Source: Octopus vulgaris (lineage: Eukaryota). Taken from it: DNA of 64,000 nucleotides. The stretch spans positions 56,606,001 through 56,670,000 of the forward strand of contig OX597817.1 in the NCBI GenBank assembly GCA_951406725.2, written 5' to 3'. The notes beneath the pieces are model-generated. The model did not search any database. It was given only the letters and a program-made list of their open reading frames with translations, and was not told the DNA's origin. The stretch's first letter is position 1; each line of letters starts with the position of its first letter. Below, piece after piece: positions 21,557 to 22,316 of this stretch. Position numbers and translations under genes: made by a program.

Positions 21557-22316
21557 GTAAAGAAAAATAAGTTGGCTAGCAGCAAGCTGTTTCGCCTCAT
21601 ACGGAAGGAATTAGAAATGGCAGTCAAAGACCGTTTTTTCCATTTCAATAAGTGGAGATTCCAAAAACGAAGGCCCTTGCGGCTCACATACACAAAACCG
21701 GAGTGGCAAATATACGAATTCAGTCACTTACCGTTAATAGCGAACACGGTGTTTCTGGATCACAAACATATAAAAAAAGGGGAGTTTGAATTCCGTCATC
21801 AGCGCTATATTCGATAGCTTTATCAAATGCCACCAGCCCTCACTTCTGACCCAGCGACATCAGATAGTGGGGGGAAGTGCGCAGATGTTAAAACCAAGTA
21901 ACGACTGGGAACGTAAATTTTCCTCCAAAATTCTGCCATGCGCGCCTTCTGGGTAATCGTAATGGAATGAGGAATCCACATGGTAATACAATAAAAATGG
22001 TAAATAATTTTCCTGTGGTTTTTCATGTAACCAACAATTATTTACCGGTAAATTTCGGTATGTAAATACGACAAAATAATTGTCAAGACCTTTGTAAGGT
22101 TCAGTATATAGTAAAGAAAAATAAGTTGGCTAGCAGCAAGCTGTTTCGCCTCATACCGAAGGAATTAGAAATGGCAGTCAAAGACCGTTTTTTCCATTTC
22201 AATAAGTGGAGATTCCAAAAACGAAGGCCCTTGCGGCTCACATACACAAAACCGGAGTGGCAAATATACGAATTCAGTCACTTACCGTTAATAGCGAACA
22301 CGGTGTTTCTGGATCA
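21557..22316 (-). mobile_element. Partial tandem element: 554-bp unit plus a 206-bp second copy, in (TA)n (Penelope pseudo-LTR or retrozyme-like)
   Basis: 21557-21762 is repeated at 22111-22316 with one visible mismatch (acggaagg/accgaagg); contains an HHR. Confidence 0.8.
21737..21808 (-). ncRNA. Type I hammerhead ribozyme motif
   Basis: Minus strand: atagcg-CUGAUGA-cgga..caaac..gtttg..tcca-GAAA-cac-c-gtg-UU-cgctat; 6-bp stem I, GUU site, first stem II pair is C.A. Confidence 0.75.

Follow-up and report, generated by a model that had tools for sequence, protein, structure and literature searches.

INTRODUCTION

Animal non-LTR retrozymes are described, in the accessible parts of the reports on them, as non-coding, low-GC tandem repeats (GC limit 45–50%) that carry one type I hammerhead ribozyme per unit and are dispersed as monomers, dimers and short multimers. 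Monomers of 150–450 nt are given in the accessible part of Cervera and de la Pena 2020 (PMC7229834), where retrozymes of mussel, coral and axolotl yield circular RNA. A 2026 preprint gives a range of 51–972 nt, argues for an origin of retrozymes from Penelope-like elements (PLEs), calls a retrozyme 'active' when it has two consecutive whole hammerheads, and reports a lack of cleavage for eight of nine dimers of Xenopus retrozymes (Li, Clavereau and Pollet 2026; bioRxiv 10.64898/2026.07.22.740005).

The hallmarks of PLE insertions are tandems, an inverted 5'-truncated arm, a tail of 30–40 bp at one end and (TA)n targets (accessible parts of PMC8557442 and PMC3846280). PLE hammerheads are marked by an extra base between positions 9 and 10.1, a G10.1–C11.1 pair and a palindromic stem III; they cleave poorly in vitro and probably act as dimers (accessible part of PMC4209133). 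The anole PLE protein cuts both strands in vitro and starts reverse transcription at two internal sites, between which the tail lies; uncleaved RNA is its main substrate, the hammerhead is dispensable, and the authors report no reads that end at the hammerhead cut (PMC11167929). It is still asked how retrozymes are mobilised, and why PLE insertions take the form of tandems longer than one unit that have inverted arms and a tail on one side. The role proposed for PLEs draws on co-occurrence and on the similarity of pLTRs; the sole in vitro PLE system works without the ribozyme.

Here we analyzed an insertion in a 64,000-nt stretch of the Octopus vulgaris genome (contig OX597817.1, positions 56,606,001–56,670,000; hereafter the window) together with its relatives elsewhere in the genome. 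Judged by its sequence, the 554-nt family to which the insertion belongs is a new member of the animal non-LTR retrozymes, a class already known. Our literature search, outside which most subscription papers lay, found nothing on octopus retrozymes or on a pairing of one start site per arm. The main text of the O. vulgaris repeat annotation (PMC13282606), in its accessible part, names PLE families and has neither 'ribozyme' nor 'hammerhead'; its repeat library, or the supplements of the 2026 preprint, may already include the 554-nt family or relatives.

RESULTS

A non-coding tandem insertion between (TA)n tracts

A previous reading of this DNA, made from the letters without database searches (the sequence-only reading), had described a near-perfect 206-bp direct repeat at 554-bp spacing. 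Our comparison confirmed it: positions 21557–21762 and 22111–22316 match with a period of 554 and a single mismatch at 21603, and the match runs 6 nt further to the left, into TATATA, as microhomology with the target. The unit is numbered q1–q554, from 21557 to 22110, and the insertion is laid out as follows.

21557..22316, minus strand: whole insertion, 760 bp, 1.37 tandem units in a single arm
21557 and 22316, minus strand: insertion ends, the RNA-sense 3' end and the 5'-truncated end, respectively (polarity from fixed versus variable ends in 118 arms)
21557..22110, minus strand: full non-coding unit, 554 bp, q1–q554, GC 39.9%
22111..22316, minus strand: partial second unit, 206 bp, sharing with the first unit a locus-private base at q91 (21647/22201)
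21387..21556, no strand: (TA)n target tract on the RNA-3' side, from sequence
22317..22527, no strand: (TA)n-rich target tract on the RNA-5' side, from sequence

Pure (TA)n had been claimed on both sides. TA tracts do flank the insertion, but the left one (21387–21556) has three GC interruptions and is pure in its proximal part, and the right one is pure for ~20 nt from 22317 and degenerate beyond. A target-site duplication, which in retrozymes is longer than 4 bp when present, would be masked by these flanks. The absence of recognisable coding, also claimed earlier, held: the longest stop-free frame in the circularised unit was 101 aa on the plus strand and 89 aa on the minus strand, and a Pfam search with an 86-aa plus-strand frame gave no match. 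The window copy started at q1, has no second arm and contains one and a half ribozymes, that is, one whole; it is probably a dead-end product. To the left of the TA tract lies a separate element with inverted arms of ~110 bp (20819–20928 and 21187–21293) around a 260-bp core, which may be MITE-like or another two-armed insertion.

A predicted hammerhead variant with covarying stems

The minus strand of the insertion holds the following predicted ribozyme features.

21737..21808, minus strand: complete type I hammerhead-like motif, predicted from sequence and covariation
21808–21803 with 21742–21737, minus strand: stem I, 6 bp, from sequence
21802–21796 and 21755–21752, minus strand: core CUGAUGA and GAAA, respectively
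21743/21742 junction, minus strand: predicted cut after GUU
22291..22316, minus strand: second hammerhead, 3' half, comprising the 3' strand of stem II, GAAA, stem III, the cut site and the 3' strand of stem I

Both the complete hammerhead and a second copy broken off within stem II had been proposed before. The layout of the predicted complete motif was borne out, with stems that covary between sister families, and the second copy indeed ends at the equivalent of 21762, lacking the stem I 5' strand and CUGAUGA. The complete motif has an extra C (or A) past A9, an extra A ahead of G12, a stem II of 3 bp beyond which a distal helix is predicted, and a quasi-palindromic stem III. The extra base, the G10.1–C11.1 pair and the palindromic stem III, all PLE-type marks, are thus present in the unit; the extra A before G12 is undescribed in the accessible part of PMC4209133.

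Rfam returned no hammerhead or other ribozyme family at the gathering score in the whole window or at E ≤ 10 in 21300–22600, and near the insertion its output comprised only low-complexity microRNA matches on the TA tracts. For the isolated motif, the active fold had an energy of –9.5 kcal/mol, compared with –11.5 for the minimum-energy fold, which is ~2 kcal/mol better. All whole units carry the motif (44 counted). Among these 44 copies from 24 loci, variation in the core was limited to position 7, which is free, and to the base added after A9 (A in 28, C in 16). In 44/44, stem II has at its base an unpaired C or A that faces an A, and the triplet is GUU. Stems I and II were nearly invariant across ~100 copies; stem III varies at one base, which lies in the middle of a quasi-palindrome of 9 nt able to pair with a second copy (–7.4 kcal/mol).

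We then compared the motif between two families ~65% alike, in which hammerhead stems with compensatory changes are retained. Stem pairing was kept in 97% of 165 cells (15 sequences), compared with 23–44% in slid controls, although the 15 aligned rows are related and the cells overstate the number of independent events; 5 of the 11 stem pairs had changed on both sides. Pairing and both-sided changes across two families indicate that the motif is not due to chance, and on this evidence it is a predicted hammerhead variant that Rfam misses.

A GAAAC hairpin at 21583–21600 was rejected as a second hammerhead: it has no CUGANGA partner and is not kept in the sister family. The circular fold of the unit had a z value of –3.9, which carries little weight (40 crude two-base shuffles). 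A perfect 5' splice-donor hexamer occurs at 21731–21726 (minus strand), 11 nt past the predicted cut; it is retained in 64–66 of 66 loci, the sister family has not kept it, and no spliced joint for it was seen in assembled contigs.

A young dispersed family with a constant period

Searching the genome with the unit gave 894 first-look candidates, and the best 40, which were scored, were mostly 95–100% identical. Exact words matched 402 times at q484–506, 201 times at q8–27 and 112 times at q378–401, so that counts drop with distance from the 3' starts; reversed control words matched 0 times. The family is spread over at least 20 contigs and is a young, dispersed, non-coding family of hundreds of copies. 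Mean pairwise distance was 1.4% among the 30 top units and 0.58% among units inside one locus (41 loci), in agreement with the young age earlier read from the single mismatch.

In all 120 distinct insertions (80 + 40) the period was 543–562 bp; none continued into a PLE ORF, and arms as long as 2524 bp remained periodic. In the word-selected sample, 4 of 88 arms were longer than two units. The sampling of loci was biased, as 35 were top BLAST matches, which are long, and the remainder required an exact word; 19 of the first 100 loci (overlapping or near-duplicate), one more, and segments below 90% identity were left out. The sequence-only reading had set its proposal against a unique local duplication and against the mere 3' ends of an ORF-bearing PLE; the genome-wide word matches and 894 candidates speak against the former, and the 120 insertions against the latter.

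Two or more whole ribozymes in succession, the arrangement called 'active' in the 2026 preprint, were found by a strict pattern in 15 of 81 loci, which could serve as sources, and not in the window copy; four occurred in the arrays of two loci (L017 and L088). Near-identical arrays at L008, L009 and L017 (G000:C13:266791–269433, 287140–288758 and 299697–301592) lie within 35 kb, by a contig end and an N gap, and are a possible assembly duplication; one was counted.

The second sample of 40 loci added subfamilies 88–93% and 77–81% alike, with periods of 543–553 bp, giving layers of 97–99%, 88–93%, 77–81% and ~65%. The ~65% layer is an older sister family (935–1074 candidates), reached through a tail-only fragment in the window, with a unit of ~604 bp, which aligns to the whole 554-bp unit (score 138, compared with 48 ± 7 for shuffles) and has a hammerhead motif at the corresponding place. 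One insertion of this family is present in the window.

57112..57236, minus strand: tail-only insertion of the older sister family (unit ~604 bp), homologous along its length

At the position of start site A (see below), the sister family has an internal tract of (TA)n whose length varies. Two loci of the 554-nt family were noted for their surroundings. At L063:2800–3090, ~25 nt of target DNA is duplicated in inverted orientation on the two sides of the insertion, and at L311:1878–2755 a copy lies 38 nt past the stop of a frameshifted gene that we take to be caspase-like from its QACRG motif. Caspase-like genes form a cluster of ~22 intronless paralogues at G000:C5:54.15–54.52 Mb, and C19 and C28 have smaller clusters. 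We rejected the idea that template switching had produced a caspase retrocopy at L005, since the gene there is one of a group of intronless paralogues that lie close together.

Two fixed start sites and one start per arm

We located the ends of 118 arms from 80 loci. The RNA-3' ends were confined, in 105 of 118 arms, to two internal sites: 70 at q1–11 (site A) and 35 at q424–445 (site B), with 13 elsewhere. The 5' ends were scattered, as expected from random truncation and not from an LTR-type architecture. Thus, copies are tandem with a constant period, as the sequence-only reading had suggested checking, but they are not randomly permuted.

21551..21567, minus strand: start site A, the RNA-3' end of the window copy and of 70/118 arms (q1–11), with TA microhomology
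21986..22110, minus strand: 'tail' of 125 nt, bounded by start sites B (q430 = 21986) and A

Neither site coincides with the predicted ribozyme cut, downstream of which site A lies at 186 nt and site B at 311 nt. Both sites end in a TA-like stretch, and (TA)4 occurred within 20 nt of the 3' flank in 101 of 118 arms. The tail is the best-conserved stretch across the subfamilies.

Head-to-head two-armed insertions were found at 33 of 80 loci in the first sample and 20 of 40 in the second (4 of the 80 loci were unclassified for arm pairing). The first sample comprised 22 A+B, 1 A+A and 0 B+B pairs, with one end elsewhere in 10, and the second 11 A+B, 0 A+A and 0 B+B pairs, with one end elsewhere in 9. 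One site per arm was therefore used in 33 of 34 classifiable two-armed insertions, and as a result one arm bears the 125-nt tail.

Insertion ends resemble those of a Penelope-like element

The family shows the PLE hallmarks of partial tandems, 5' truncation, a head-to-head inverted 5'-truncated arm, a tail bounded by two starts and a (TA)n target. As a control we used a young ORF-bearing PLE of the same genome, whose translation contains an RT with YRDD, a Cys linker and, at the C terminus, a GIY-YIG domain, and which we take to be Neptune-like from its domain order. Among 20 end regions of this element (two without a hammerhead in range and one mis-scored were left out), 8 of 8 inverted pairs lay in (TA)n and had one end at +201–210 and the other at +367–383 nt relative to the cut of the element's own hammerhead. 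This shared end pattern makes PLE machinery the likely mobiliser, and we consider it very likely that the retrozyme is moved in this way.

The control PLE (L163–L178, L211–L230) has a 2.2-kb 3' UTR, a hammerhead with a long stem II and a 170-nt tail. Its frame is broken in every sampled copy, with no unbroken RT-EN frame, and its similarity to the 554-nt unit was no better than that of shuffles (P = 0.38); it therefore shows the type of machine and not the partner. No PLE with a pLTR matching the unit was found in ~110 PLE-containing stretches of at least three families, a set far from exhaustive. Likewise, no autonomous partner was found through the sister-family tail, the sister body, three PLE protein queries with flanks, or 40 tail- or body-selected loci. 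Tblastn with PLE proteins gave nothing continuous with the unit in the 120 insertions, and Pfam gave nothing useful on PLE ORFs. A PLE protein from this genome was 96% identical to an Octopus sinensis protein.

Other PLE-like and hammerhead-like features were noted in passing. In the window, a hammerhead-like motif at 7113 is followed by a decayed Neptune-like RT and GIY-YIG frame detected by tblastn (7113–8790, plus strand). The region 43270–43970 has inverted hammerhead-like motifs (43354 minus, 43891 plus) with inverted flanks and is likely a two-armed PLE-type insertion. Minimal hammerhead-like motifs stand head-to-head at 28760–29020 (28834 minus, 28948 plus), one with an extra A before GAAA. 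Further CUGANGA...GAAA motifs occur at 3918 (minus), with a palindromic stem III, and, weaker, at 37333 (minus), 50227 (plus) and 54262 (plus). Elsewhere, L161:2110–4509 (minus) has an 800-aa open frame with a PLE linker match whose end resembles another non-LTR element, and is probably a nested junction.

Clonal units and the nature of the template

We examined 13 diagnostic sites and found that units and arms within an insertion agreed in 372 of 373 cells, compared with ~127 disagreements expected under random sampling of units from the family (14 haplotypes, 51 loci). Seven locus-private bases in six loci, including q91 in the window, were fixed in all same-strand units, compared with 0.05 expected by chance; a further 47 private bases occurred in single units only and resemble later mutations or errors made in copying. 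The shared variants are not explained by A-to-I editing, as 22 shared rare variants had no A>G or T>C bias. Clonality and fixed private bases point to a frequent step that makes several units from one. As for the predicted cut, ~108 arm passes reach it, 3 stop within 2 nt (1.1 expected) and ~97% cross it. The pile-up of 5' ends near it (q180–192) was non-significant (6 compared with 3.0 expected, P = 0.08), and there was no excess variation at the junction (9/829, compared with 1.4% overall).

These data bear directly on the form of the template. A linear, uncleaved read-through transcript of a tandem array could serve as PLE template, with a hammerhead that is slow or acts elsewhere, and this would fit the use of uncleaved RNA as chief PLE substrate in vitro (PMC11167929), the poor cleavage of PLE hammerheads (accessible part of PMC4209133), the four-ribozyme arrays at L017 and L088, the scarless crossing of the cut site and the rarity of word-selected arms above two units. 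However, read-through can only shorten arrays and would transmit unit-specific variants, whereas each of the 14 haplotypes is uniform across units and the private bases are fixed; nor does it give a reason for compensatory hammerhead stems through all four subfamily layers. We regard read-through as rather unlikely. An unligated linear monomer, on which the RT would jump from the 5' end to its own 3' end and so produce tandems, explains clonality as well as a circle does and might account for the slight excess of 5' ends by the cut. Template jumps usually scar junctions, as in R2-type elements; nearly all passes here cross the cut, with no added substitutions or indels. Few stops at the cut and no extra junction variation make a cleaved linear monomer an unlikely run-off template, and template jumping on it is in our view very unlikely.

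We also weighed two further explanations. The copies could be pLTR-only or 5'-truncated pieces of an unsampled autonomous ORF-bearing PLE, a view to which the PLE-like character of every insertion hallmark, the scoring of the best 40 of 894 candidates per search in a genome where PLE families amount to thousands of fragments, and the resemblance of Xenopus retrozymes to pLTRs (accessible part of bioRxiv 10.64898/2026.07.22.740005) all lend something. No insertion of the 120 leaves its cycle for an ORF, even in the longest arms, and an ORF-less tandem cannot be a truncated pLTR-ORF-pLTR; we judge this explanation highly improbable. DNA-level duplication or gene conversion could in turn produce uniform units within a locus, as in a minisatellite or local duplication with a chance or dead ribozyme. 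Such an origin is contradicted by the spread over contigs, the fixed 3' ends, the one-sided truncation gradient, the two-armed inversions and the covariation; the distribution of ends refutes it, and we give it next to no credence. The combination of clonal units and copying through the predicted cut favours a circular over a cleaved linear template, and the template was probably circular RNA, although clonality may also come from a source array whose units are uniform, from gene conversion or from template jumping that leaves no seam. The earlier inference that a circular or tandem 554-nt template was copied more than once is therefore backed by the clonal units as regards repeated copying, with the circle itself as the inferred part.

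Contigs from three runs, which we could only guess to be RNA, cover the unit and return by 554, and one 585-nt contig closes on itself; a fourth run gave no such contig. The flanks used as a control were uncovered in two runs, partly covered in one and covered in the large run. Assembled contigs cannot separate circle from tandem or RNA from DNA, and they were not used as evidence.

DISCUSSION

Relation to retrozymes and Penelope-like elements

The 554-nt family has the same organisation as animal non-LTR retrozymes as these are described in the accessible sources, and its GC content is below their limit. Its monomer is above the range of the 2020 paper (150–450 nt) and inside that of the 2026 preprint. 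To the retrozyme hammerhead it adds the PLE-type extra base, the extra A and a long stem II, and its twin fixed starts and two-armed insertions are undescribed in the accessible retrozyme reports. PLE mobilisation through circular RNA has been proposed for those elements. Xenopus retrozymes have a homologous pLTR according to the preprint; for our unit none was found in the ~110 PLE-containing stretches.

With EN+ PLEs such as Neptune and Poseidon (PMC8557442, PMC3846280, PMC11167929 and PMC4209133, in their accessible parts) the family shares partial tandems, a head-to-head inverted 5'-truncated arm, a tail at one end, RT starts at internal positions downstream of the hammerhead, (TA)n targets, the extra base between A9 and G10.1 and the palindromic stem III. 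Autonomous EN+ PLEs have a single ORF with RT and GIY-YIG domains, whereas the 554-nt unit has none. Its tail of 125 nt compares with 30–40 nt in published PLEs and ~170 nt in the Neptune-like element of the same genome, and its starts lie at TA-like microhomology, whereas those of the anole PLE have no homology to the cut DNA (PMC11167929). Chlamys elements such as MRC1 are likewise non-autonomous PLE derivatives with pLTRs and head-to-tail multimers; according to the accessible part of PMC8557442, they generally share 3' sequence with an autonomous family, for which we found no matching counterpart, and the MRC1 clade is without canonical hammerheads, whereas the 554-nt family retains its own.

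A possible route of copying and its implications

We favour, as the probable account, a non-LTR retrozyme copied from circular monomer RNA by a PLE RT and GIY-YIG endonuclease acting in trans. A source locus with at least two whole ribozymes would be transcribed from the minus strand; the ribozymes, probably dimerised through the quasi-palindromic stem III, would free a 554-nt monomer, which would be ligated into a circle. The PLE protein would nick a (TA)n tract and prime from either of the internal sites, A or B, on a single strand or on both, and the RT would circle the template until it drops off, which at the window copy would have given 760 nt from site A.

A broader proposal is possible, and we hold it with more doubt than confidence. 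Hammerhead circles of ~545–605 nt may have persisted through at least four subfamily layers without a sequence-matched master, being recognised by structure by a dimer of the PLE protein. Each half of the dimer would be fixed to its own start, 125 nt apart, and the two would travel around one and the same circle, in opposite directions with respect to the genome; the hammerhead would be an active variant with an unpaired N–A at the base of stem II.

The value of the family lies in its countable footprints, namely a single start site for each arm in 33 of 34 cases, as in the ORF-bearing PLE of this genome, clonal units and seamless crossing of the cut. It leaves a clean record of where copying starts, and a 554-nt substrate permits a test of circle versus line. 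If the proposal of a persisting circle lineage is true, the family would provide a minimal substrate to settle whether PLE templates are circular and how the tail and the inverted arm originate.
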